Shown: positions 29,789 through 55,009 of the stretch, piece by piece | How positions within the stretch are numbered: the stretch's first letter is position 1 | How the letters are laid out: each line of letters starts with the position of its first letter | Assembly: GCA_035221665.1 (NCBI GenBank) | Contig: CM069134.1 | Span: forward strand, 31,434,001-31,498,000 | DNA from: Okamejei kenojei | Lineage: Eukaryota | DNA: 64,000 nucleotides | Direction of reading: 5' to 3' | Made by a program: the position numbers and the translations under genes | The notes under the pieces: model-generated | What the model saw: only the letters and a program-made list of their open reading frames with translations | The model's database searches: none | Told to the model about the DNA's origin: nothing

Positions 29789-32572
29789 TGTGGCGCGTTT
29801 TGCATACAGCCTGTCACCACTGGCGACTCACAAGCAGCCTCAAGAGAAGGTCCAGCCACAAGAGCTGAATAACAACTCCAAAGTCAGACGCACTAATTGG
29901 CCTTATCTGCACACGGGTTATGATTGGCGAGAATGTAGATAAAAGGGGCTTCTGGAATAAACGGGACACAAGGTGTCTGGCTCAGCTGGGTGTTGTTTGT
30001 TCTTTGCTTTCTGTCATGGGATTCAGTAGATCCTACAACTGGTGACCCCGTTGCTACACGCTACCTTCCACTTAATCACAAAATGTATGACGATAAAGGT
30101 GACACGATAGACAAGTCTTTGCCCATAAACCAACGTCATGCTTGATGAAAGGCCAGATGAAACATTCAGAGATTAGTTTTATCGTAGCCTTCTTGCCCGG
30201 ATGCGACAATATGGTGCAGCGGCCCGGTCGTGTCAACCTCCTTGCTCCTTCTACAAACATCAACACCCGGGGAAACGACGAGGCCCGGCAGTAGAGGCGA
30301 CTGCTGCCCGTGGGCAAACTAGCCACCGTTTTTTTTGTCAGCGATTGTCTTTCGGGTATACACTATCTCATTGACTCCAGCGCCAAGTTATCGGCCGTTC
30401 CTCATAGTTCCCAAGAGTGTTTACACCCTAATCCCGGATGTGTTCTCACCTCTGCGAACAATTCTAGCATACAGACATTCAGTCAGAAATCAGTCACGCT
30501 CGACTTCAGTCTGCAGAAAACGTTTAGCTGGATTCTCACAGTTGCTGACATATCAAAACCCATTAACAGAGTGGATTTTCTTTCAAACTTTTATTTGCTG
30601 GTGGATTTAAGAAATCGCCGCTTAAGTGATTACTGCTCCCACGTACAGGTGAACTGCATCTGCCGTCCGGCAATGACTATCTCTCACCTTACCAGCCTCC
30701 AACCCAGCACCGGCCCATATCAGGAGTTACTTAAACAATTTCCATGACTAATAACTCCATCTTACCGGCACAAGGATATCAAACACGCTGTCACGCATCA
30801 TATTCAGACCCGCGGCCCTCCCGTTTCGGCAAGAACGCGCAGGTTCCCCGTAGACCGCCACAAAGTTGCAAAGGCCGAATTTGACCATATGTTGGAGCTC
30901 AGGATAATCAGCAGGTCTAGGAGCTGCTGGTTATCACATGGTCCAGAAGAAGTCTCCCGGAGATTGGCGATCTTGCAGCCACCACCGTTCAATAAACAAT
31001 GCCACTATTCCAGATCGATACAGCATCCACATTTGCAGGATTTCTCCGCAAGCCTACAGGGTAAGCAAGCATCGATCTCGTGCGCGCCTGTCGACATTCC
31101 CAATATCTCGTGCGTTTATCGAGCCTGCCGATATTCCCAAGATAGCCGTGGTCACTCCGCTCGGGACGTTCGGATTTCAACAGATGCCGTTTGGTTTACA
31201 GAATGCAGCACAATCGTTCCAGCGTTTCATGGACCACATACTCTCCGGCCTCGATTTCGTGTTGCGATAACTTGCGAGCTCCAGCGAAGACAAACTCAAG
31301 AAACACCTCGGATTACTTTTCCAGCATCTCGACGAATACGGTATTGTCATTAAGACGAACAAATGCGTGTTCGGCGTTCGAGAACTCACTTTCCTCAGGC
31401 ATGACGTGATGGAGAACGGCATCGTGCCCGGCGAATCAAAGGTGCAGGAAATCCGAAACACAGTGCCAAATCCGTTAAATGAATTATGCCGATTTTTGGG
31501 GATGATGAATTTCTACTGCCACTTTCAGGTCAGGTCGGGGGGAGTTCCCCCCGCCACGGGTACCTTGTAATCCCGTGCTACCTGCTCCACGATCGGATAG
31601 TCGGCGACTAAACTGTCTCCCCGACCTGGTTTGCCAGGTGAGGAGGGGGCTGTGGACCCCCAGCAGGATGACAGGATGCTATCCCAGTCATCAACATTTC
31701 AGCGGAAACAATTTGTTGACCGATGGATTTTGGTCTTTAGGGACCCAAGTATGATCACAACAGACCAAGGACCGCAATTCGAGTCTGCTCTGTTTCAAAC
31801 ACGAACCGACCTCGTGGGTACGAACCAGATTAGAACGACTGCGTATCATCCACAAGTGAATGGCCTGATTGAACGGTTCAATTGGCAGTTGAAAGCCGCT
31901 CTGGCAGCCAGAGTAGGCGCGTCGAACTGCAGTGAACAGTTGCCTCTGATTCAGCGTGACATTCGTACGGCGGTGAAAACAGACCAAGGATGCTCGTCGG
32001 CGGAAATGGTTTATGGCACAACTCTGAGGCTGCCCGGTGAATTTGTCGAACCAATCCCCACAGACAGGTCATATGACCCAAGCAGGTATGCTGACCTCTT
32101 CAGCAAGTATACAATGGCTCATTACAAAGCCATCCAATGCCTACTCAAATATTTTGTGATCTATCGGAACGGAAAAACTGACACCGTATCCGTCGACTGC
32201 TTAAAGCCAGCATGCGTCAAGAAGCAACCGACTACTTCACCCACCGAACTGGCGAAGTTACAAGACCCCAACACTTCCTGTCAAAGACCACCCACACTGT
32301 AGTACCAAACAAGATCAGGCTGTAAAATCAACCCGCCAGACTGGTACGGGGCAGGACAAAGCCAGGCAGTTGCCACCTTGTATGACTCAGTGGCTGAGGG
32401 GGAGCTGTTGGGCCTTCATGCCCACGTTGGTTTTGCATACAACCTGTCACCGCTGGCAACTCGCCAGCAGCCTCACGTGAAGGTCCAGCCACAAGAGCTC
32501 AATAACAACTCCAAGGTCAAACGCACTAATTGGCCTTATCTGCACACGGGTTATGATTGGTGAGAATAAAGG
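29789..32572 (+). mobile_element. Degenerate, rearranged Gypsy LTR retrotransposon
   Basis: 5' LTR 29789-30037; PBS TGGTGACCCCG at 30040; protease (YLIDSSA); RT (TPLGTF...MPFGLQNAAQSFQRFMD); integrase (ITTDQGPQFES, AYHPQVNGLIER); PPT at 32396-32404; partial 3' LTR from 32406. Confidence 0.9.
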
Positions 32573-34912: not shown

Positions 34913-37900
34913 AAGACTTCCGGTGGCGCCATGGAGGGCTAGAGAGTAACGCCAGCCAGCTCCGTGAAAAAAACGAGGAAAAACCGGGGAGAAAAGAGCT
35001 ACCTGCTGCCTGATGTTTCTGCACCGGCTGCCGAGAGTGACGTCATCAGGCGTGCGACTCGTAATGGCAACACAGCGCAGCCCACCCGTGGATAAATAAA
35101 AACTTCGATATACAAGACAAAAAACGGCAGAACAAGAACAAGGCCCAACTGAAGCCTCGGGCTCAGGTAGGACACTATCCCAAGAAGATGTGTCGAAAAA
35201 ATCGAAAATTGAAGAACTTAAAGTTTTTTTTGTACAAGAAATGGTAGAGTTAAAGAAATAAATAAAGTTGGAATTAAAGACTGAACTGGCAAAAATGAAT
35301 TTTAAGGAAGAAATAGAAAAAATCAAGGAGGAGATGAAAGAGTTAAAGTCTGAAATCAATATCTCGGCCACGGAATTATCTGACACATTGCAAAAGGAAA
35401 TTGCAGAAATATTAAAGGATCGAGCTGCAAATATAGTAGTAGAGATGAATGATAAAATCCAAAGTAAGATGGAAACAGAGCTGGAACCTGTGGAGGAGAG
35501 AGACTCAAGGAGCAGTCGACAGCCATAAAGAACCTTGAAGATTTAGCCGAAACAAGTGCTCAGACTATGAAAACACTCTCAAGAAAATCAACATCTATCT
35601 GATTTTTACTGGGCAAAATAACTGATAAATGTACCGAGTTGGAAGGACGCCAGAGAAGACAGAACCTAAGGATCGTGGTATTTCGAGAAGGGAGAGAAAA
35701 GAATCAAGATACCGAGAGGTTTACTGCAAACCTATTGCAAAAGGTTTTATCTCTGGAACAAAAGCCTTTACTAGCCCGAGCACACAGAGTAATGGAGACG
35801 TTTTTCAAGGCAGGACGCCCCTCAAGACAAATGATAGTAAAAGTCCAGTATGATCATGTCCTGGAGGAGATGATGAACAAAATTGTAAAAAGTAGAAATC
35901 TTACATACGAAGAAGATTCGATCAGCATTTATCGAGACTACCCAGCAGAGGTCTCCAAGAAACGAAATGCGTTCAAGGAGACCAAAAGAATTTTGAAGGA
36001 AGTGAAGAATTTGAAGTGTTGAGGTACCCCAGCCACCTGAGAGTCACCTACAACCAGGAATTATTTCAAAAACCAGCGGATGCAATGAACTTTGCCCAGT
36101 GGGATTAAGGAACGAGAGGAAGACTGAATGAAATCTTCAAAGATGAACTATACCAACAAATAAATTGTATTTTCAGGATTGGAGTGGACTATGGACTTGT
36201 TGCACCTAAAGAAGATGGAGAAGGAAGCGGATTGGAGACTCGGATTGGAGATACGGATTGGAGACTCTCCTATGGATACTAACAATTAGAATAATAACAC
36301 TACTAATATTAATAACTAACAAATATTAAAATTTATACAGCGGTTTTATTATTAATTAAAGCTGATAACCAACAATTAATGATTAACAACTAATTATAGC
36401 TGATTTACTTAGAATTAGGTAAACAGTAAATATAATCACACAGAATATAAAGTTTGACTTCATTTATCCCCCCTGGCACTTTTTTTCCCCTCCCTTTAAA
36501 ATTTTTTTTATTTTAATTATATCTTTTAATATGTATTAAGTATAGATATTATCATATACTTGACCGATGGATCCTGTACACATCAGAGTTTTAATATTCC
36601 CGGTTAAATATTTTTATGGAATAACAATTTTAAGGAACCATGGAGATGGATAAGTTTGTAACATCGACTACGGAAGTCGGTAGATTGCTAGCCATGGTAG
36701 TATGGCTAACACTAACTACACTAATATTAGATGTTTTTTCTCTCTTTGTTGCACCCTATTAATCTCTTAATCTATCCTTTTTTATATATTATTCTTTGTT
36801 ATTATTATTTTATATTTGAATGGAGTTATAAATTAATACAAAGGAGATTATACGTGAAGAGATACCCAAGGGTCTTGAAATTCATCTATTCGGTGTTCGG
36901 GTGTAAAGTCGGGTATGTCGAGCTGAACCATTTGCTCTATTACATACCTCCTTAGATAAAAGATGCAAGACTAAAAACGAATACGGGGAATGGAGGAATA
37001 ACGTTTTGTAATGAATGTTAAAGGTATTGATACCATTTGAGAGGTATTAGCACATTTAAAAGCACTTAAAGTAAACGTGCATTTATCCAAGAGACACATC
37101 CAAAAAAATATGCCGAGCATAGATTAAAGGCTAAATGGATTGACAAAGCGTATCATTCTTCTTTTACACACAAATCTAGAGGTGTAGCAATTTAATTCAT
37201 AAAGGAATTTCATTTAAACACACTTCAACTATAACTGATAGATGGTAGATATATTATTGTAATAGGAGAATTATACACACAAAAAAAGATTTTTGTCAAT
37301 GTATATGGCCCAAATTTTGACAGCCCAGTTTTTTAAGAAAATATTTAATACTATCCCAGAATTACCACAACACAACCTAATAATTGGAGGAGATTTAAAT
37401 TGTACACTAGATCCTTATTTAGACAGATCATCAAGACAACGGAAAATTTTACATAACATTCTATGATCTGATAGCACCACGTTTGAAGACACTTTATGAA
37501 TATATTTATGCACAACAGAAATTACCAGAAACATTAAAATGAATCTATTATAACACTTATACCTAAATTAGATAAAGATCTGGATGATCCAGGGTCGTAT
37601 AGAGCCATAGCTCTTTTAAATACTGATCAAAAAATATTAACCAAAATACTAGCACAAAGACTAAATACAGTGATTAATAAAGTAATTCATTCAGATCAAA
37701 TAGGATTTATACCAAAACGATACACCTCATATAACCCGAGACGATTATTCAATATTATATACTCGAAAAGAAATATTAATAAAGATCTAGCAATTATCTC
37801 ATTAGACGCAGAGAAAGCTTTTGATCAGGTTGAATGGTCTTATTTATTTTCGGTTATGGAAACTTTTCAGTTGGGAGAGAAGTTTATAACATGGGTTAAA

Positions 37901-44100: not shown

Positions 44101-44690
44101 GCTATGGGAGGGGATCGAGGGTCTATGGGGGGGGGAGGGCATTGGGGGGGTGTTGGGAAGAGGCGATATGGGCTGGCGGTATGGGGGGCATGTGTGGAGC
44201 ATGGGTTGGAGGCAGGGGGGGGGATGGAGGGCATGGGGAGTGGTCGGAGGGCATGGGGGGGGGATGGCCATGGGGGGATGGAGGATGGAGGGCAAGTGGG
44301 AGGGTGGAGGGTTAGGGGGGTATGGAGGTCTATTGGGGGGATGGAGGGGGGGGTGCAAGCAGTGGAGGGCATGGGGGGTGGTAGGCTATGAATTGGGTGG
44401 GTGTGAGGGTCATGGTGGGGATGCGAATGAGTGGTGGAATGGAGGGCATGGGGGGATGGAGGGAGATGGAGGGCTGGGGAGGATGGGGGTGGGAGGATGG
44501 TATGGGCATTGCAGATGAAGGGCATGAGGGGTGTGTGCATTGGGGGGAGGGGCATGGATGGAGGGATGAGGCATTGGGGGGGATGTGGGGGTGGGAGGGC
44601 AGGGTTGAGACGGGTGGAGGGCATTGGGGGGGGGGCATGGGGGTGTGAGATGATGGAGGGCCATTCTGGAGGGGCAGGGGGGATGGGAGA
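41170..44690. repeat. G-rich degenerate minisatellite (GGGGGATGGAGGGCAT-like)
   Basis: About 3.5 kb of imperfect units of roughly 16 bp with extreme G skew; the source of many spurious Gly/Pro ORFs. Confidence 0.95.
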
Positions 44691-44732
44691 CGTTGGGCTG
44701 GTCTCTGGGCGGTGCGAGGGCCCGGGTCTTAC

Positions 44733-44834
44733 ACAAGCGCGGCAACAGCGGGCAGCGCCAGTAAAGTCCAGGAGGCTCAGGCGGCGGCTCGGGCCGGTTT
44801 AGGCGCGCGGTTACTGGGCGGGGGAGGAGGACAT
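44733..44834 (-). CDS. AFG3L2: AFG3L2 exon 1 candidate (mitochondrial presequence); frame disrupted as assembled
   Basis: Only CpG-island-like, non-repeat segment with an ATG (44834-44832) and a GTAAG donor (44732-44728) upstream of exon 2; 102 nt, phase 0. The 3' part reads SRRLSLLDFTGAARCCRAC, but two TAA codons lie in the ATG frame. Confidence 0.55.
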
Positions 44835-44960
44835 GACAGCGACGACCACCCGCTGCCCGCGGCCAGCGTCAGCGCTGACCGACGCTGACCGGCGTGTTAC
44901 GTCATGCGAAGCCCGCCTGCCCGCCTGCGTCTGACGTATTGTCGCCCTCCCACGTCGGTG
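44835..44960 (-). promoter_or_regulatory. Probable AFG3L2 CpG promoter/5'UTR
   Basis: CpG-dense and directly upstream of the exon 1 candidate; CRE/ATF-like TTACGTCA (44897) and TGACGTA (44932); GC-rich CCCGCC boxes. Confidence 0.55.
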
Positions 44961-45019
44961 TGGGGGGTGAGAGGCGCTATGCAGTTCCTTCTTTTAAAAC
45001 GGGAGTGGGGACTATGTGC

Positions 45020-47470
45020 AGCCTGGCTGAGGGGTGGGGGCACGGGGACTGTGGGGGCTGCGAGTGACTGCCTATTGGAGGGACTGTGGGGGACCGGGGA
45101 CAGTGGAGGGCGATGGGGGAGCAGATGGAGGGACTTGGGGGGGGGTGGAGGGCGTACTGTGGGGGCACGGGACAGTGGGGGCACGGGGCTGTGGGGCTCA
45201 CGGGGGCAGTGGTGGGACATGAGGGGTATAAATGGGGGGTGGGACACTGTGGCACAGTGGGGGGGGGCAGTGTAAGGTGGGACAGTGGAGGACGATGGGG
45301 TCTTGAACGGGGGCGGGGGTGGGGACACGCGGAGAGGGGACACGAGGGATGTTCTCACATGGGGGACACGCTGGACTGTGGCTATGCCGCACGGGGGATG
45401 TGGGGACGTAAGGAGTGGGTCACTCGTTGCTGTGCGTGTCCAGTGCCGGCGGTGTCATCCAGAGCGGCGGACTGGGGACACGGGGGCAGTGGGTACACGG
45501 AGACTGTGGGGACACAGGGGCTGTGGGTCCACGGGGACTGTGGCGGACACGGGGGCAGTGGGGGACACGGGGCTGTGGGGACAGTGGGACCGGTGAAGAC
45601 TGTAAGGGACACGATTTGGACTGTGGGGACCGGGGGGCTAGTGGGGACACCCCCCCCCCCCCGGGGGGGACGGGGACTGTGGTGACACGGGGCAGTGGGT
45701 ACACGGGGGACTGTGGGACACGGGGGCAGTGGGGACACAGGGGCAGTGGGGACAGTGGGGAACGGTGACTGTTTGGGACACGGGGACTGTGGGGACACTG
45801 GGGGGGATCTGTGGTACGGGATGACACGGGGCAGTGGAGACACGGGGGGGGGCAGTGGGGACACGGGGACTGTGGGGACACGGGGCGTGGGGACACGACT
45901 CGGGGGCAATGGGGGCACCTGTGGGGGACAGTTGGGGCACAGGGACTAGGGGGGACACGGGGGCAGTGGGGACAGTTGGGACACGGGGACACGGGGGCAG
46001 TGGGACAGGGGGGCAGGGACACGGGGGGCAGTGGGGACAGTTGGGACACGGGGACAGTGGGGACACGGGGTGTGAGATACGCTTTGTGCTCACAATCACT
46101 GCTCAAAGACTAAATCTTGGAAGCAAGAGATTCTTTATTTTTCACGAATCTGCAGAACCGGGTGCCTCTCCAAGTCGAGACACACCGAAGTCAGAGAAGT
46201 CATCCCCCTTTATACACACAATTTTACATTCAACCTCCCCTCCGGACCCTTCTCCAATCAGGGTCTGAGGTGCACAATCTGTAGGTACATCCCCCCAGTA
46301 CCTCCCATATCATACATCGCATGTCCAGACATGTTCAGGGTAATGAGCAGTTTCTTGACCAGGGATGTGTTGTAATATTCATTTATTTTATTAAGCATGC
46401 TCAGTTGCTCATGACCTACCCTAGTTTTACTCACCTCCAAGTGAACCCTCTCAGTTCTCCTATATCAGTACTAAAGCTAAGCTATAGTGACAAGGGTCCC
46501 ATCTATCACTCCATTCTACTGATAGAGATCTCTCTACATCACTCCCTTCTACCGCTATTCAATGCTATTACTTCTTACTCAAGGATGGGTCTGGTAACTT
46601 TTATACACAGCTGTGTCAGAACCCTCTCCCTGGCCCATATTTGAATCCTCTTTAAGACTCCTTACTATAATGGGGTTTAATCACTTTATCCCTCACACGG
46701 GGGCAGTTGGGACAGTGGAGACACGGGGACAGTTGGGACACGGGGACTGTGATAGTTGGGACACGGGGACAGTTGGGACACGGGGACTGTGACAGTTGGG
46801 ACACGGGTACAGTTAGGACACAGGGTGTTGGGACACGGGGACTGGGGCACGGGGACAGTTGGGGCACGGGGTGTTGGGACACACAGAGAGTTGGGACACG
46901 GGGACTGGGGCACGGGGACAGTTGGGACATGGGAACAGTTGGGACACGGGGACTGGGGCACGGGGACAGTTGGGACACGGGGTGTTGGGACACGGGGACT
47001 GGGGCACGGGGACAGTTGGGGCACGGGGACAGTTGGGACACGGGGACAGTTGGGACACGGGAACAGTTGGGACACGGGGACAGTTGGGACACGGGGACAG
47101 TTGGGACACGGGAACAGTTGGGACACGGGGACAGTTGGGACACGGGGTGTTGGGACACGGGGACTGGGGCACGGGGACAGTTGGGGCACGGGGACAGTTG
47201 GGACATGGGAACAGTTGGGACACGGGGACAGTTGGGACACGGGGTGTTGGGACACAGGGACTGGGGCACGGGGACAGTTGGGACACGGGGACAGTTGGGA
47301 CACGGGGACAGTTGGGACACGGGGACTGTGACAGTTGGGACACGGGTACAGTTGGGACACAGGGTGTTGGGACACGGGGACTGGGGCAGTTGGGACACGG
47401 GGACAGTTGGGACACGGGGCAGTTAGGACACGGGGACTGGGACACGGGGACAGTTGGGACACGGAGACTG
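45020..47470. repeat. GGGACACGGGGACAGTT-type minisatellite, split by a solo LTR
   Basis: Units of about 17 bp, degenerate at 45020-46070 and more homogeneous at 46698-47470. Confidence 0.93.
46071..46697 (-). mobile_element. Solo LTR (ERV-like or other family with 5-bp TSD)
   Basis: TGTGAG...CTCACA termini; CGGGG TSD on both sides; on the minus strand, GTATAAA (46215-46209) then AATAAA (46139-46134). Confidence 0.85.
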
Positions 47471-47499
47471 GGGCAACCCGGCCACTCACCCCCCCCCGG

Positions 47500-47741
47500 A
47501 CACGTGACGCTTCAGGCTTCAGGCAGTTGTTCCTCCCGAGCTGACGTCACGCCGTTGCCCCGCCCACGGAGACGTCACAGCGTGTGGCATCCCGCGCTGA
47601 CGTCACACAACATCTCCGCCCGCGATGACGTCATGCCGCAGCCGCTCCTGCGGTGACGTCGCCCCCGGACACAGTTACGTCACGGGCTCGCCCAAGCCCC
47701 GGGCAAAGTGCGGCCCCAGCCGGCCGCTGCTCCCTCTCACC
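47500..47741 (+). promoter_or_regulatory. CpG island with a phased CRE array
   Basis: TGACGTCA at 47542, 47598 and 47626; AGACGTCA at 47570; TGACGTCG at 47654; TTACGTCA at 47675. The first five are exactly 28 bp apart. Confidence 0.7.
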
Positions 47742-47888
47742 ATGTCCCTGATACTCTTCTGTCTGTGTCGCTGCTGCATGCTCTGCCCCTCCCTTTGCCT
47801 CTTCATCTTCTTCACGATCATTTTCTTTGTCATTTATCTGCTCGACTCCTACGAGTTCATAAACCTGCCGCCTGAAGAAATGCGCTGA
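47742..47888 (+). CDS. Putative 48-aa Cys-rich single-pass membrane micropeptide, or first exon of an unknown gene
   Basis: CACCATG context; MSLILFCLCRCCMLCPSLCLFIFFTIIFFVIYLLDSYEFINLPPEEMR*; lies in non-repetitive CpG-rich sequence after a CRE array; GTGAGC donor at 47929. Confidence 0.4.
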   Translation: MSLILFCLCRCCMLCPSLCLFIFFTIIFFVIYLLDSYEFINLPPEEMR

Positions 47889-50800
47889 CCCCCCCTTCAC
47901 TCTCGGCGGGCTGAGAAATCCTCAAATGGTGAGCCAAACGGCGGACACAAGGGAGATACCCATCAGGCCTGTCCAGCACCAGCCCGATGTTTCAGTGACA
48001 TCTGGAAAAGGTAGGGACAGGTCAGATCGTTGATGTACCTGACATGTACCTGATCAAATGATGTGCTGACATGGTGAAGCAGCTTCCACCATAGCTTCGA
48101 TCAGGCAACCCTGCCGTCATGCAATCCTCGAAAAAGAACAAGATGAAACCTGAGAGACACAAAATGCTGGAGTAACTCAGCGGGACAGGCAGCATCTCTG
48201 GAGTGAATAAAATGGGTGATGTTTCGGATTGCGACCCTTCTTCCGACTGAAAGTCACGGGGAATGGAAACGAGAGATATAGACAATGATGCAGAGAGATA
48301 TAGAACAAATGAATGAAAGATGTGGAAAAAAGTAACAATGATAAAGGAAACAGGCCAGTGTAATGTAGCTAGAACTAGATGTTTCAGTCTGAATAAGGGT
48401 CATGATCCGAAACGTCACCCATTTCTTCACTCCATGCTGCCTGTCCCGCTGAGTTACACCATTTTGTGTCTATCTTCGATTTAAACCAGCATCTACAGTT
48501 CTTTCTTACACAAGATGAAATCTGATATCAATTTACTAAGTAAATGCCAAATGTGCTGTTGGAATTACTCAGGTTAGGCAACATCTATGGAGCGAAAAAC
48601 AGACCTAGCAAACCAAATCAATAAAAAGTTAGATATAAAGAGATATAGGAAAAAATGATGGGGGGGGATGGAGATTCATAATTGAAGCTCCGAGATGGAG
48701 TGCAATGCAGGGGAGATCAAATGATGTAATATAAGACGATGCAAAGCCAAAAGGAATGGTGATAGGGCAAAATATTGTGAATCACTATCTAAAATAGTTA
48801 CGTTCAACATGTTCTCATGTGCACCCCGCTCATCAGACTGAGTGGAATATAGATTCAAAGGGAATAAGTCTTAACATTGGTATGTATCCCCAATGAGATC
48901 ATAATACAGATAATACTATCCTACCTAACCTGTAATTCCTTCCACTTTGAGAAACGAATTAATCTCCTGTTCCAACACGTACAATGAATTCAAACCTGCT
49001 GGACAACTTATTCCAAAGGTCCATGACTTTCAATGAAAAGTAATTCATAATATTTATTTTGATTGTCTGTTGTTGTATTATATTGTATTGTATTGTAACT
49101 ATGTCAGTGGATCAGTTCTGAGTTTATTTGAAATGCAAAATTCAAATAAATCCTTCATAGATGATTAGGAAACCCTCTGGAAGATTGTAATTTTGTTCAA
49201 ACTATTTTTTTGGGCTCCTACTACAAAAGATTTTGAACATACACACAGACCAAACTGTTTTACAAGGTAGAGAGTAGAAAACAATATTTACAAGTAGGGA
49301 TTGCGTCGAGAAAGGGATAAAAGATTTTTTCGAGGCCTGCAGATAGTATAACGTGATTGGATTAGCAATATAACAGTTTTCTAATGTAAAACATTTAGGT
49401 CAGTAAACAAAACCTCAAAGTACAATCTAATATGATTTGAAACTTTGAAACTAAGCAGACCATTTCAAATGGACAAAGACATTAGAATGTTGCATTCCAA
49501 ATTCCATTTGGATTGAAATAAAACTCAAACTGCTGGAGGAACTCAGCGGGTCAGGCAGCATCTGGGAAGGGAATAGACGTTTCGGCTCGGGGCCCTCATT
49601 TTTGAAACGTCGCCTGATCTCCCCCCCCCCCCCCCCAGATGCTGCCCGATCCGATTAATTTCTCCTACACTTCGTATTTTGCTCAAGATTCCAGCATCTG
49701 CAGAGTCTTGTGTCTCTATTTGGATGGATTGAATGAATAGCATATTTGTTACTGGGGCAGAATATTTTCCAATGAATTTTATGCGATTATGAGTCTGAGT
49801 GAGAGGTGTATGAGCGACGGGGATGGGGGGGGGGAGAGAACGACTGCGACTTATTACAAGAAATACTCGTGTTAGTAACGGTATCACCTACAGCTAACTC
49901 TACGCATTGGGTCTAATTGAAACCCTCACTCCTACCATTCTCCACCCTCTGTTGCTTTTAAAATAAAGTAGGATATAGCTAAGCGCAAGGCTTCATAACA
50001 TTTTTTAATAGCGATCTGGTAAAGAACACAAATTGCATTCAGAGTGTAAAAGGCGGGGACTCTTTAGCAGTACCTCCAACAAGTTTCCTTATAACTATAA
50101 CCAACCCACGTTGGTCAGCTGATCTGCACATTGACACATCGTTTGTGCGTATTGCGTCATGACGTAAACGCCCCCTCTTAGATAGTTAATTCATCATAAA
50201 CCTCATCTCCAGCTCAACAAAGTCATTTTGATCCCGACCCAAACCCTGAAATGACCTTTCTTGCTTCTCTGTTCTACCGTTTCTGCCGGCATTTGACTTT
50301 TTGTGTGATGGTGTTTATTTTCATTTTTGTTTTGGCTTTCCTGTTTGCTTTTGACTTAGAATCCCACTTGCCCGACTACCAAATATTTTAGTGGCTATTT
50401 GTCACAGCTAGGGCTGCCACCTGTCGATCGTTGTGCGTTGTGCGTGGTCGGGCTGCCAACTTCACGCCGAGAAATTGTGGAATGAGATATAAGGTAAGGC
50501 AAATTACAAACGCATCTAAATTCGAGTTTAATTTGGTTTAACCCGTTTTTGGATCATTGATGCCAAGATCAACTCTTATCTGCCTGCACACAATCCATAC
50601 CTCTCCATTCACTTTATATCCAGATGCTTACCCAAACATATTTTAAATGCCACTATCATATCTGCCACAACTATCAAATCCTGGCAGCTCGTTCAAGGCA
50701 CTCGTCTTGTTAAAGAAAAAAATAGGATTTTCCTGACTGAAAATAAGTTTTTGCTAGATCTTTAATCAGCATACTTAACAAATCGCAAAGAGTGTCAGGT

Positions 50801-52489
50801 GGTTATTTTGCAGAAACATTTTTCAGGGTACCAAATAATTATCACGCGTTGAACGCTTGTGAATCAGATTAATTTACACAGAATGAAGAACAAATAAACC
50901 GTGAATACAATACGGTAATAAACATCAACACTATTTAAAACAAACTGCGCAGACTAATCACCAGATATGAAATATCGGTTACTTTCTGGTGGGCCTCGTC
51001 CTTTGAGCTGCTCCTTTAACCCAACCAAGTCAGAAGTTAAACAAGTAAGAGGTTGGGTCGCAAAGCATAGAAACATAGAAATTAGGTGCAGGCCATTCGG
51101 ACCTTCGAGCCTGCACCGCCATTCAATATGATCATGGCTGATCATCCAACTCAATCCACCCCAAATCGTTCACGGATTTCAAGTCTATTCTTTTGTACGA
51201 ATAGGTTGTACTAACGCGTCCTCCTGACAGTAACAATAATCGTTTGAAATAAGTAAACTTAAAATGATGGATGTTTACTGAGTTCGGAAACAACATGTTC
51301 AAGGGTCAAGATTTCTTTAATGCCAACGATACAAGTGTCACATTTTATTTTTGCACAGGGAATATGCGAACGACATGGAGACGCAAGACAATGCAGATGC
51401 TGGGATCTGGAACAAAAAACAAACAGCTGAAGAACCTAGAAACAAACTGCTCGAGGACAAAAAGGCAAACTGCTGGAGGTACTTGCGGCAGACAAACGTA
51501 GACTGACTATTTCTCTCTGCAGAATTCCCCCAGTAGTTGATTTGCTCCAGATTCCAACATCTGCAGTCTCTTATGTCTCCAAACTCCTGAAGGAACCCGG
51601 TGAGTCAGGCAGCATCTGTGGGTGTTTTTGGGTCGCAAACCTGCATCAGAATCACCCCTCTACTTCTTCAGATGCCGCCCGATCCGCTGAGTCGTAGATT
51701 CATACAGCATGGTCATACAGACCCTTCGGTCCAACCTTGCCCCACCATATCCCATCTACACTAGTCCTACCTGCTTGCGTTTGGCCCACATCCCTCGAAA
51801 CCTTTGCGATCCGTGTACCTGTCCAAAGACAAACTGGGGCCTTCGGTTTGTCTTTGCATATAAGAATAACATGGGAAATCTTGAGTTAAAATAGCTAATT
51901 CTAGGAATTTAGAGAAGGGTCAGGCGGAGGCAAGAATGTTTTCAAGAGAGTTAGATTTAGCTCTAAGGGCTAAGGGAATCAAGGGAAATGAGGGAAAAGC
52001 CGGAACGAGGTACTGATTTTGGATGATCAGCCATGATCATATTGAATGGCGGTGCTGGCTCAAAGGGCCGAATGGCCTACTCCAGCACCTATTCTCTATG
52101 TTCTATGTTCTCATTTGCATCGAAATAATGACATTCTTACTTGCTGCAGCTTTACAAGGATGTCATTGTTCCAGCATTGGGGGTGTTGATCTGATGCACG
52201 AATGACTCAATATTGTCACAACAGATGCTGCACTAGCTGCTGGGACGTTTAAAGATTAATGTTCAGCTGTAACTGGAGCAATCGCGGGAGCATTGACAGA
52301 GATCACCGACAATTGTCAGCTGGACGAAATGTGTAGGAAGGAGCTGCAGCTGGTGGTTCACGCCGCGGCTGCTGGAGTAACCCAGCGGGACAGGCAGCGT
52401 CTCTGGAGAGGAGGAATGGGTTGTTGTCAGCTGGACTGGAGGCTGGTGCATGGGCAGCGCGTGCGCTCTGGAGCTTGAAGGACGGCTGG

Positions 52490-53040
52490 TGGGCGGGACG
52501 TGTGGATAATTGACAGGTGTACGGGGGGACATCCCTGCCGGCGAGGCGATGCGGGGAGAGTGACGTGTATGGGCGGGTCCTGCGGGGGATTAACAGTTCA
52601 TGTGGGCGGGGCGTTGCGGCGAGAGTGACGTATATGGGCGGGACCTGCGGGGGATTGACATATCATGTGGACGGGGCGATGCGAGTGACGTGTATGGGCG
52701 GGACCTGCAGGTGATTGACAAAGCATGTGGACTGGGCGACCCGAGTGACGTATATGGGCGGGTCCTGCGGGTGATTGACAAAGCATGTGGACTGGGCGAC
52801 CCGAGTGACGTGTATGGGCGGGACCTGCTTGTGGACGGGGCGACGCGGCGAGAGTGACGTGTGTGGGCGGGTCCTGCGGGTGATTGACATGTAGACTGGG
52901 CGACCCGAGTGACGTGTATGGGCGGGTCTTGCGGGTGATTGACATGTGGACGGGGCGACGCGAGTGACGTGTATGGGCGGGACCTGCATGTGGACGGGGC
53001 GACGCGACGCGAGTGACGTGTGTGGGCGGGGCGAGTGGGC
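52490..53040 (+). promoter_or_regulatory. PRELID3A promoter minisatellite (TGACGT + GGGCGG units)
   Basis: Nine copies of GAGTGACGTRTRTGGGCGGG at 52558, 52623, 52683, 52743, 52803, 52852, 52907, 52962 and 53011, ending about 120 bp before the ATG. Confidence 0.75.
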
Positions 53041-53148
53041 GATGGAAGTGCCGCGGGGGCGTGTGCTGTGATTGACGGGCGGCTCTGTGGGCGGGATGGC
53101 CGCGGCCTCCCAGCGGTGAGGGTCTGGCTCTGTGAGCGTAGCGGCGCC

Positions 53149-53180
53149 ATGAGGGTGTGGAGCTCGGAGCACTCGTTCAG
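53149..53180 (+). CDS. PRELID3A: PRELID3A (SLMO1) exon 1
   Basis: GCCATG Kozak context; encodes MRVWSSEHSF(S); AG/GTGAAG donor; 32 nt; inside a CpG island. Confidence 0.93.
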
Positions 53181-55009
53181 GTGAAGGTAACGCGAGGGGT
53201 GAGGGTCCATGAGGAGAGAGGGTCGCGCTGCAGGGCGATGGTTCTTCTGTCTCAGCCACAGTCTGGGATAGCGGTACTAGTTTCCTGCCCTCACCTTGGT
53301 GCATGGAGACCACGCCGCAAGAAGTCAATGGGTCAAGCAGCAACTGGCATGGTGCATGATCTGCACAAGACATGTCAGCTTACACCTGCCTCCACAGATG
53401 CTGCTTGAGCTGCTGAGCCCCCGACTTTCTGCATCTACAGTCTCTCTGGTGTGAATTGGGTTAAGACATGTGTTAGCCCATCTCGCAAGGGTTGGGATTA
53501 CTCTGTAGTTCTCTAGACCATGTTGTATAGATGTCTCGGGGTTGATCTATTTAGAATAAAGTGCGATGCATGATATCTGCTACAGTAGATTCTGTGTTGA
53601 GAAAGGACTGAATGCGTTTACGTGGGTGGAAAACAACAACTTGTTTTGCAAAGCATTTTAATTGTTTGGTGTATCTCTTTCGCAGCTGTGGCTAATTCAT
53701 TTGGGAAATAGCTTTAAAAATGAGCCTTTTAATGTGTTTTTATAATAGATTCAGGCTGCAGTGCCTGAATGAAGTTCAGTCCTCTATTTTTGTTTTATCA
53801 TTTTAGGTATGTTCCTTGAAATAATGAGAAACGTGATGCCATATTTTATTGTTATGTTGTTGCCACTTCTCTGGCCTCCCCTAGTATTATACAGAATGCC
53901 TTGAACTTAAGAGCAGAGAATATTTAGTAGACAGCGCTATCGTCCTGGGAGCTTAGTGTTTGTTGCAGTTGAATTGGACTATTTGGAACTGTATTTGACC
54001 CCAGAATGTGTTTTGGTTCATCACCAAGATTACCTACTTCAACATCTGTAAACACAGCTGGATGTATCCCTATCTGTCCATCCATGCTTCCATTGCCTTT
54101 AGGATTGACTGGTCCAACTCTCCAAGCCTTCCATCTTCCACCAAATTGATCTCATCCAAAATTACATTACCTCACTCACCAAATACTGGTCACACGTGTC
54201 CACTATCTTCAGGTAGACACAAAATGCTAGAGCAACTCAACGGGTCAGGCAGCATCTCTGGAGAGAAGGAATGGGTGACGTTTCGAGTCGAGACCCTTCT
54301 TCAGTCCACTATCTTCATTCTTGACTTCCAGTCCAATAATTATTTTTAGAACAAGAGTCCCGACCTGAAACCTCACCTATCCATGTTCTCCAGAGATGCT
54401 GCATGACCCGCTCTTATTCCAGCATTTTGTGTCCTTTTTAAAAAAATTATTGTTGTCAGTTTACAACCTTCTGAATGACCTTGATATGATGTGGCACCAT
54501 TCTTAATAACGTGGCACTCAACGTTGATATAAATTGTGGGGAAAATATAATCTTAATGAATTGATATGAATGTTAGGTTTTGGTATAGCGAAAGGAGGAA
54601 TACATTTTTTCTTGCCCTAAACGTTATTCACGCCACTACATTTGTTGTGCACCTGTACACTGCGGATAGCTCGATTGTAATCGTGTATCGTCTTTACGCT
54701 GACTGGTTAGCACGCAACAAATAGCAGGGGGCAATAAACTAAACTCTGAACTTTTTGGAGTTATTTACTGTGCAGTATTGCATTAAACATATCCCTTTTC
54801 CGAGAATATAAAAATTATAATTACTTATAGGGTTTGTGCATTTTAGATTGTTATTGGTTTGTGCAATCGTTTTGAAAGTTTTAAATCATTAAACCCATTG
54901 TCTTTTATGACATTCAATTCTTTTACGCCTACTTTTTTTCCAGTGTGCAACGATGTCAGTTATATGATAGATTTATTAATATCTAATTTTTATAAAACTA
55001 AATGTTTGA

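Follow-up and report, generated by a model that had tools for sequence, protein, structure and literature searches.

Results

A CpG island between AFG3L2 and PRELID3A

A CpG island carrying six CRE-type octamers lies between AFG3L2 on the minus strand and PRELID3A on the plus strand, which stand head-to-head in the window (the whole 64-kb stretch of Okamejei kenojei DNA that was analysed); their distances from the island are 2.8 and 5.5 kb, respectively (Table 1). The two genes are recognised by their exons, those on the minus strand matching AFG3L2 and those on the plus strand PRELID3A, and one AFG3L2 exon is 100% identical to the Amblyraja and Leucoraja proteins. Each gene has a CpG island of its own with CRE-like and GC-rich motifs (CpG observed/expected, o/e, 1.15 and 1.17). 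A search for publications naming this locus in the title or the start of the abstract returned none, and the supplements of a little skate paper (PMC10115646) hold, in the parts covered, one AFG3L2 expression row and no PRELID3A row.

Table 1. Features of the AFG3L2/PRELID3A interval. Positions are those of the window; X7 and X20 are sequencing runs from two other organisms, and entries called candidate are predicted from sequence only.
Feature	Position	Strand	Description	Comparison or remark
AFG3L2 first coding exon	44688..44780	-	approximate; weak tblastn piece, E 0.17, residues 8-32	assembly error-rich
CpG island	47480..47940	.	GC 0.62, CpG o/e 0.97 over 461 bp	whole-window o/e 0.49
Candidate minus-strand donor	47484..47489	-	consensus GTGAGT	52 bp from CRE1
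Seventh ACGT core	47501..47509	.	E-box CACGTG at 47501 overlapping half-CRE TGACG at 47505; 42 bp before CRE1	X7: half-CRE retained, additional letters between it and CRE1
Decayed tandem array	47522..47682	+	five 28-bp modules and a shortened sixth unit	
CRE1	47542..47549	.	perfect palindrome TGACGTCA	unchanged in X7; alignment end in X20, reading insecure there
GC box	47560..47565	+	CCGCCC	middle G is T in X7 and X20
CRE2	47570..47577	.	AGACGTCA, one mismatch	unchanged in X7 and X20
CRE3	47598..47605	.	perfect palindrome TGACGTCA	unchanged in X7 and X20
GC box	47616..47621	+	CCGCCC	one change in X20
CRE4	47626..47633	.	TGACGTCA, perfect in this skate	one change in X7, three in X20; ACGT core kept
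CRE5	47654..47661	.	TGACGTCG, one mismatch	within 76-bp block 47633-47708 without a listed change in X7 or X20
CRE6	47675..47682	.	TTACGTCA, one mismatch; 21 bp after CRE5	unchanged in X7 and X20
Micro-ORF	47742..47888	+	48 codons; Cys-rich N-terminal part, one hydrophobic helix, acidic tail	
Candidate splice donor	47929..47934	+	GTGAGC	40 nt after micro-ORF stop
Candidate non-coding exon	50360..50493	+	pyrimidine-rich acceptor, donor GTAAGG	
Upstream PRELID3A exon	51359..51478	+	in frame with exon 2	part of RefSeq isoform X1 of Leucoraja erinacea
Canonical PRELID3A first coding exon	53149..53180	+	start at 53149	

The AFG3L2 promoter (44860-44945), where the assembly is error-rich, contains three CRE-like or half sites (44867, 44897 and 44932) and two copies of an 8-bp GC-rich unit. 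Around the first coding exon (44688-44840, minus strand) the sequence has frameshifts and stops relative to near-identical skate proteins, and the stretch from 41 to 46 kb resembles an unpolished long-read consensus. The canonical PRELID3A promoter (52558-53030) is a young tandem array; its nine units measure 49-65 bp, all have GAGTGACGT and GGGCGG, and four also have TGATTG. This younger GTGACGT/GGGCGG array indicates that promoter-proximal duplication is not rare at the locus. A common origin with the six-CRE array is unsupported: the best ungapped match reaches 11-17 of 29 positions in opposite orientation, and the distance from GC box to CRE differs between the two arrays. Between them, at 50050-50170, two overlapping near-CRE sites (~50152-50167) follow a GGCGGG in a segment with a CpG o/e of 0.79, possibly a fourth promoter element before the candidate non-coding exon.

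Repeats are frequent in the surrounding DNA. A 17-bp G-rich minisatellite of 45 copies (46709-47468) abuts the array, and the AFG3L2 promoter is flanked by related arrays at 45470-46070 and by a G-rich satellite of 3.5 kb (41.2-44.7 kb). Outside the array the window has one perfect CRE, in AFG3L2 intron 1 (35035-35045), just upstream of what we take, by resemblance, to be LINE-1-like ORF1 fragments (35262-36022). A further CpG-rich stretch (30000-32300, o/e 0.98) holds broken frames that presumably, again by resemblance, encoded retrotransposon-like protease, reverse transcriptase and integrase. The window contains no second copy of the six-CRE array, and an Rfam search of 44500-54000 gave no match at E values up to 1.

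The array is a decayed tandem repeat of a GC-box and CRE module

The original prediction described CRE palindromes at an exact 28-bp period with a sixth site 21 bp further on, and this description is accurate: start-to-start gaps are 28, 28, 28, 28 and 21 bp, three of the six octamers are perfect and three have a single mismatch, and CCGCCC boxes occupy two of the spacers, as it had said. CRE-type matches are not enriched in the window as a whole (21 against 16.2 expected), so only the cluster is unusual. Under a first-order Markov null of the 461-bp island the mean is 0.21 sites, and none of 20,000 draws had at least six; four equal gaps arose in 4 of 400,000 random placements. An 11-bp direct repeat, CCCCCGGACAC, stands before the ACGT core at either extreme of the array (47493-47503 and 47662-47672).

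The regularity of the array is explained by duplication. Each module runs from a variable 5' half through a CC(G/T)CCC GC/KLF-type box and 4 bp to the CRE octamer, and the five units can be aligned gap-free if each is taken to finish with its CRE. Pairwise identity then rises from 38% over the first ten bases, through 66% over the following ten, to 90% in the octamer, a gradient which identifies the repeated entity as the GC-box and CRE module. The four full spacers share on average 10.3 of 20 positions in pairwise comparison (~52%), against 6.6 (~32%) when shuffled (p=2e-5), and the array is thus a decayed tandem repeat, although Tandem Repeats Finder (TRF) does not report it at a score of 30. 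The proposal of an old tandem repeat with drifted spacers is therefore borne out, but calling the spacers largely different understates how alike they are. A hairpin or cruciform reading of the array was rejected because it folds no better than shuffled sequence (z=-1.65; 14 of 200 shuffles fold equally well).

The original prediction also saw selection on both the motif and its spacing. For the motif, a simulation of uniform drift reached the observed CRE identity with P=0.05 when matched to overall identity and with P=0.006 when set at approximately the spacer identity; since the array had been selected on account of its CREs, we regard this as moderate evidence that CRE columns have been kept better within the array than uniform drift would allow. 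For the exact 28-bp spacing the case is weak. The period has been retained without indels, but its retention through drift has a probability of ~0.05-0.10 under a rough indel calibration, and 28 bp amounts to 2.67 helical turns, which puts adjacent CREs 240 degrees apart and not on one face of the DNA. Helical phase is restored after three units.

Between-species comparison

Four of 24 listed sequencing runs were compared with the locus, and two of them, X7 and X20, yielded orthologous DNA at roughly 5% difference. Five differences near contig ends or gaps (one and one in X7, three in X20) could not be placed and were excluded from the counts, and the two runs share 20 of 38 variable sites and so are not independent of each other. 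In both, the array is free of indels. How many copies of the whole array exist was judged from these two runs and the window.

At this shallow distance the CREs are not more conserved than the spacers, contrary to the expectation that went with the selection argument: 3 of 48 CRE positions vary in the two runs combined versus 7 of 93 spacer positions (Fisher p=1.0). All three CRE changes fall in CRE4, which is near consensus in X7 and broken in X20. None of the 24 bases of the ACGT cores has changed (p=0.21 against the rest), and comparison of the five other octamers with the spacers gives p=0.10. Conservation of the array does not exceed that of the 192 bp beyond the candidate donor (10 of 141 against 15 of 192 variable sites, p=0.84), and the 76-bp invariant block has p=0.14 after scanning. 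Taking the array-internal and between-species data together, selection on the motifs is plausible from the repeat itself and unsupported between species.

CpG islands are commonly defined by GC above 50%, CpG o/e above 0.6 and length above 200 bp, and the island at the array exceeds all three values. Over 27 CpGs, two CpG transitions were found in one species and none in the other at ~5% divergence; the CpGs are thus not hypermutable, which points to an island that is unmethylated in the germ line. Together with the contrast in o/e between island and window, this speaks for a regulatory CpG island that looks unmethylated in the germ line. Retention of CpGs extends across the entire island and therefore says nothing specific about the CREs. 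In mouse, constitutive CpG-island promoters are characterised by CRE, SP1 and E-box motifs, according to the covered part of PMC2267717, and the island here carries CRE, SP1-type and E-box motifs. There is no TATA match in 47470-47760, and neither TATA nor AATAAA occurs between 47400 and 48200; the first AATAAA is at 48206 and the first TATAA at 48634.

A micro-ORF with a coding signature downstream of the array

Fifty-nine base pairs after CRE6 a 48-codon micro-ORF opens on the plus strand, with its ATG in a CTCACC context that places A at -3 (strong Kozak) and with the three perfect CREs 109-200 bp before it. Its GC3 is 0.75 against a GC1+2 of 0.35 (binomial p=1.5e-4), and this bias is present in all three thirds of the frame. 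Among the 257 ORFs of 40-80 codons in the window it ranks first in codon bias, the runner-up being its own antisense shadow, and second in hydrophobicity; the most hydrophobic ORF (50251) crosses the T-rich tract before the candidate acceptor at 50359. An ORF of at least 48 codons appears in 0.38 of Markov draws, and one as long and as hydrophobic in 0.0003.

In X7 and X20 the micro-ORF has no indel, its ATG and stop are kept and the frame is intact, with 4-5 nt deletions in the other species 8-9 bp upstream of the ATG. Its variable sites comprise three silent and four missense changes (I>L, F>L, F>I and N>T; silent excess p=0.18). From 47877 to 47933, across the candidate donor, no change is listed in either run, and changes resume at donor position +6. 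The original prediction had named the micro-ORF, or either flanking gene, as a possible target of the array; of these, the micro-ORF is the likeliest direct target.

Searches for relatives, which have little power for a 48-residue hydrophobic query, gave no Pfam family at E values up to 1, nothing in two protein searches and no usable match in the Atlas, and no homologue or annotation was found in protein collections that include the RefSeq proteins of three skates. One metagenome locus matching 16 residues at 61% was judged a chance hit. Two other readings of the segment were set aside: a minus-strand coding exon over 47741-47873, in which one of seven changes is silent, the GT donor is lost in X20 and no Pfam match is found; and an 87-codon extension from an ATG at 47625, which is lost in both other species with the frame broken. 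Two additional runs overlap the micro-ORF in ways that bear neither way on expression: X9, probably DNA, contributes one 166-nt contig at depth 2.6 over 47741-47906, and X6, which may be DNA or RNA, one contig from 47864 that is unspliced across the candidate donor.

Upstream PRELID3A exons

PRELID3A has an annotated exon upstream of its canonical start. In Leucoraja isoform X1, 28 of 28 residues match 51393-51476 and join exon 2, and the skate studied here has an in-frame ATG at 51375. PRELID3A isoforms of 150 residues that do not use the canonical start are annotated in Leucoraja and Amblyraja, and other batoids have other alternative N-termini. The Leucoraja exon implies that some PRELID3A transcription begins upstream of the canonical promoter; it could start at the six-CRE array, at the CRE-like element near 50150 or at the 51359 exon itself. 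The acceptor of this exon fails a filter of 16 pyrimidines in 20, and the exon itself, which would replace the first residues of the PRELI domain, looks by resemblance like what we assume to be an exonised SINE.

Discussion

We think that the array is probably a TATA-less CpG-island promoter for a plus-strand first exon that holds the membrane micro-ORF. A long-ago tandem duplication of one GC-box and CRE module would have generated the array, whose copies then drifted, mostly in their 5' halves, as the ACGT cores stayed. The array would now serve as the proximal promoter of a separate plus-strand first exon within the head-to-head AFG3L2/PRELID3A interval. CREB/ATF1/CREM dimers and Sp/KLF factors, acting on the six sites, may keep the island unmethylated, and TATA-less transcription would start at about 47690-47740. 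The exon, with its presumed single-pass membrane micro-ORF, would end at the candidate donor and is probably spliced toward the upstream PRELID3A exon. With such splicing, the micro-ORF would be translated either as the product of a small gene or as a strong uORF on long-leader PRELID3A isoforms.

Promoter output would be set by the number of CREs and not by the 28-bp period, which would be a relic of duplication. A library of reporters carrying as many as six CREs gave outputs that depended on how many sites there were and how near they lay to the promoter, with no visible effect of the predicted orientation of CREB, as far as the covered part of the report goes (10.1101/625434); the importance of number and closeness fits a period that is a by-product of duplication. 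In the covered text of PMC3091680, mouse CREB sites cluster near -150 of start sites, and SP1 is the motif found in CREM peaks that have no CRE. The same text suggests that a TATA box is needed for the cAMP response of CREB, not of CREM, with 1% of CREM-bound promoters depending on it. The array lacks the TATA box suggested for a CREB-type cAMP-inducible promoter. With no TATA and with CRE and SP1 motifs of the constitutive type, the cAMP-responsive cassette of the original prediction is a possible reading and not the default one.

A more ambitious version of the promoter model is tentative and has a minor chance of holding as a whole. The six-CRE promoter would drive an unannotated, skate-lineage membrane micropeptide of 48 residues on a transcript that runs into PRELID3A, between two mitochondrial genes. 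cAMP, through CREM, would switch PRELID3A to a long-leader isoform which makes the micropeptide and either represses the lipid carrier or alters its N-terminus. The most valuable lead from this work is the unannotated micro-ORF itself, which has a coding signature and may be linked to upstream PRELID3A transcripts.

Other readings of the array have to be weighed against the promoter model. The island could be a shared, enhancer-like element that boosts the AFG3L2 and PRELID3A promoters and has no stable transcript of its own, in which case the micro-ORF would be incidental. Both neighbours are mitochondrial genes with CRE/GC-box promoters, the CREs are palindromic, and the mouse intergenic sites bound by CREB include distal enhancers, according to the covered text of PMC3091680. 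We consider this unlikely: an enhancer does not account for an ATG in Kozak context, a codon bias that ranks first, a frame that is intact and a conserved donor.

That the array is a passive relic strikes us as quite unlikely. It would then be an ancient minisatellite whose surroundings escape methylation for unrelated reasons, and its CREs would have survived by chance and been noticed through ascertainment. The rates of change are equal in CREs, spacers and downstream DNA, CRE4 is altered in X7 as well as X20, there are tandem expansions around the site, and uniform drift at matched overall identity produces the observed CRE identity in 5% of simulations. Against this, all six ACGT cores have been kept in an array whose spacers are at 52% identity (P ~0.006 when calibrated on the spacers), identity climbs steadily toward the CRE within each unit, and five of six octamers have no listed change in two species.

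It is very unlikely, in our judgement, that transcription from the array runs mainly on the minus strand, where it would yield an antisense RNA or a short, non-coding exon at the start of AFG3L2. A consensus donor does lie on that strand close to CRE1, and the GC boxes of the PRELID3A promoter array read GGGCGG on the transcribed strand, as those of the six-CRE array do on the minus strand. However, the 12 skate-named or skate-like AFG3L2 proteins that were compared all start in the exon at ~44.7 kb, where there is a separate CpG island (an exon without coding sequence would be invisible in proteins), and X7 has an insertion just upstream of CRE1.

CRE repeats occur in retroviral U3 regions, and some viral enhancers are built from CRE modules in tandem between GC-rich flanks. 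By that analogy the array could be an LTR or other mobile-element enhancer, which is highly improbable given that it is single-copy in the window, unlike an element dispersed in many copies, that a search at 80% likeness (with a filter that omits records) gave one contig in X20 (whole run) and two end-to-end contigs in X7 (~88%), and that the TATA and polyadenylation signals of an LTR unit are absent from 47400-48200.

Comparison with known systems

SERCA regulins and SMIM proteins are small single-pass membrane micropeptides. The predicted product of the micro-ORF would be similar in having ~50 residues and one hydrophobic helix, a resemblance of architecture only. The locus points to an unannotated small membrane protein in skates.

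The nearest parallel to the array is the human TRIB3 promoter, in which a 33-bp VNTR repeats a C/EBP-ATF site and output increases with the number of copies, as set out in the covered part of PMC7425993. In both cases a bZIP site has been multiplied by tandem duplication of a promoter unit of ~30 bp, and the units of the array, like those of TRIB3, are head-to-tail at a fixed period with a site in each. TRIB3 units are, in the same part of that report, identical, young and polymorphic (1-5 copies), whereas the spacers here are 52% alike and the array draws no TRF call. The unit count is the same in three species, with no array indel in X7 or X20, and the multiplied elements are a palindromic CRE and a GC box instead of a C/EBP-ATF site. 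The array falls outside the TRIB3 class of VNTR, since its units are too dissimilar to count as near-identical and the number of copies is constant in the three species.

The array also resembles vertebrate CpG-island promoters in its CRE, SP1/KLF and E-box motifs, its high CpG o/e and its lack of a TATA box, but six CREs at a fixed period differ from the one or two scattered sites described for such promoters in the covered part of PMC2267717. In layout it is comparable to the synthetic reporters of 10.1101/625434, in which, in the part covered, as many as six CREs at equal spacing occupy the 150 bp next to a promoter, with a period of ~25 bp (sites 66 and 91 bp upstream); the array differs from these in being natural and TATA-less, with GC boxes mixed in and half of its sites imperfect. 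At both array ends CCGGA lies just 5' of an ACGT core, as in the ETS-CRE composite. The distances are 1 and 7 bp, and not the 4 bp of the CGGA-N4-ACGT rule given in the covered part of PMC3464117, and there is no CCGGAAG.

If functional, the array would be a late-stage case of a promoter that gained sites by tandem duplication and kept its motifs as the repeat decayed. A young array with the same motif classes lies 5 kb away, so that early and late stages of the process can be compared at one locus. The six-CRE array is an ordinary kind of element with unusual regularity, and its type of repeat is a familiar one; the small reading frame beside it is the lead worth following.
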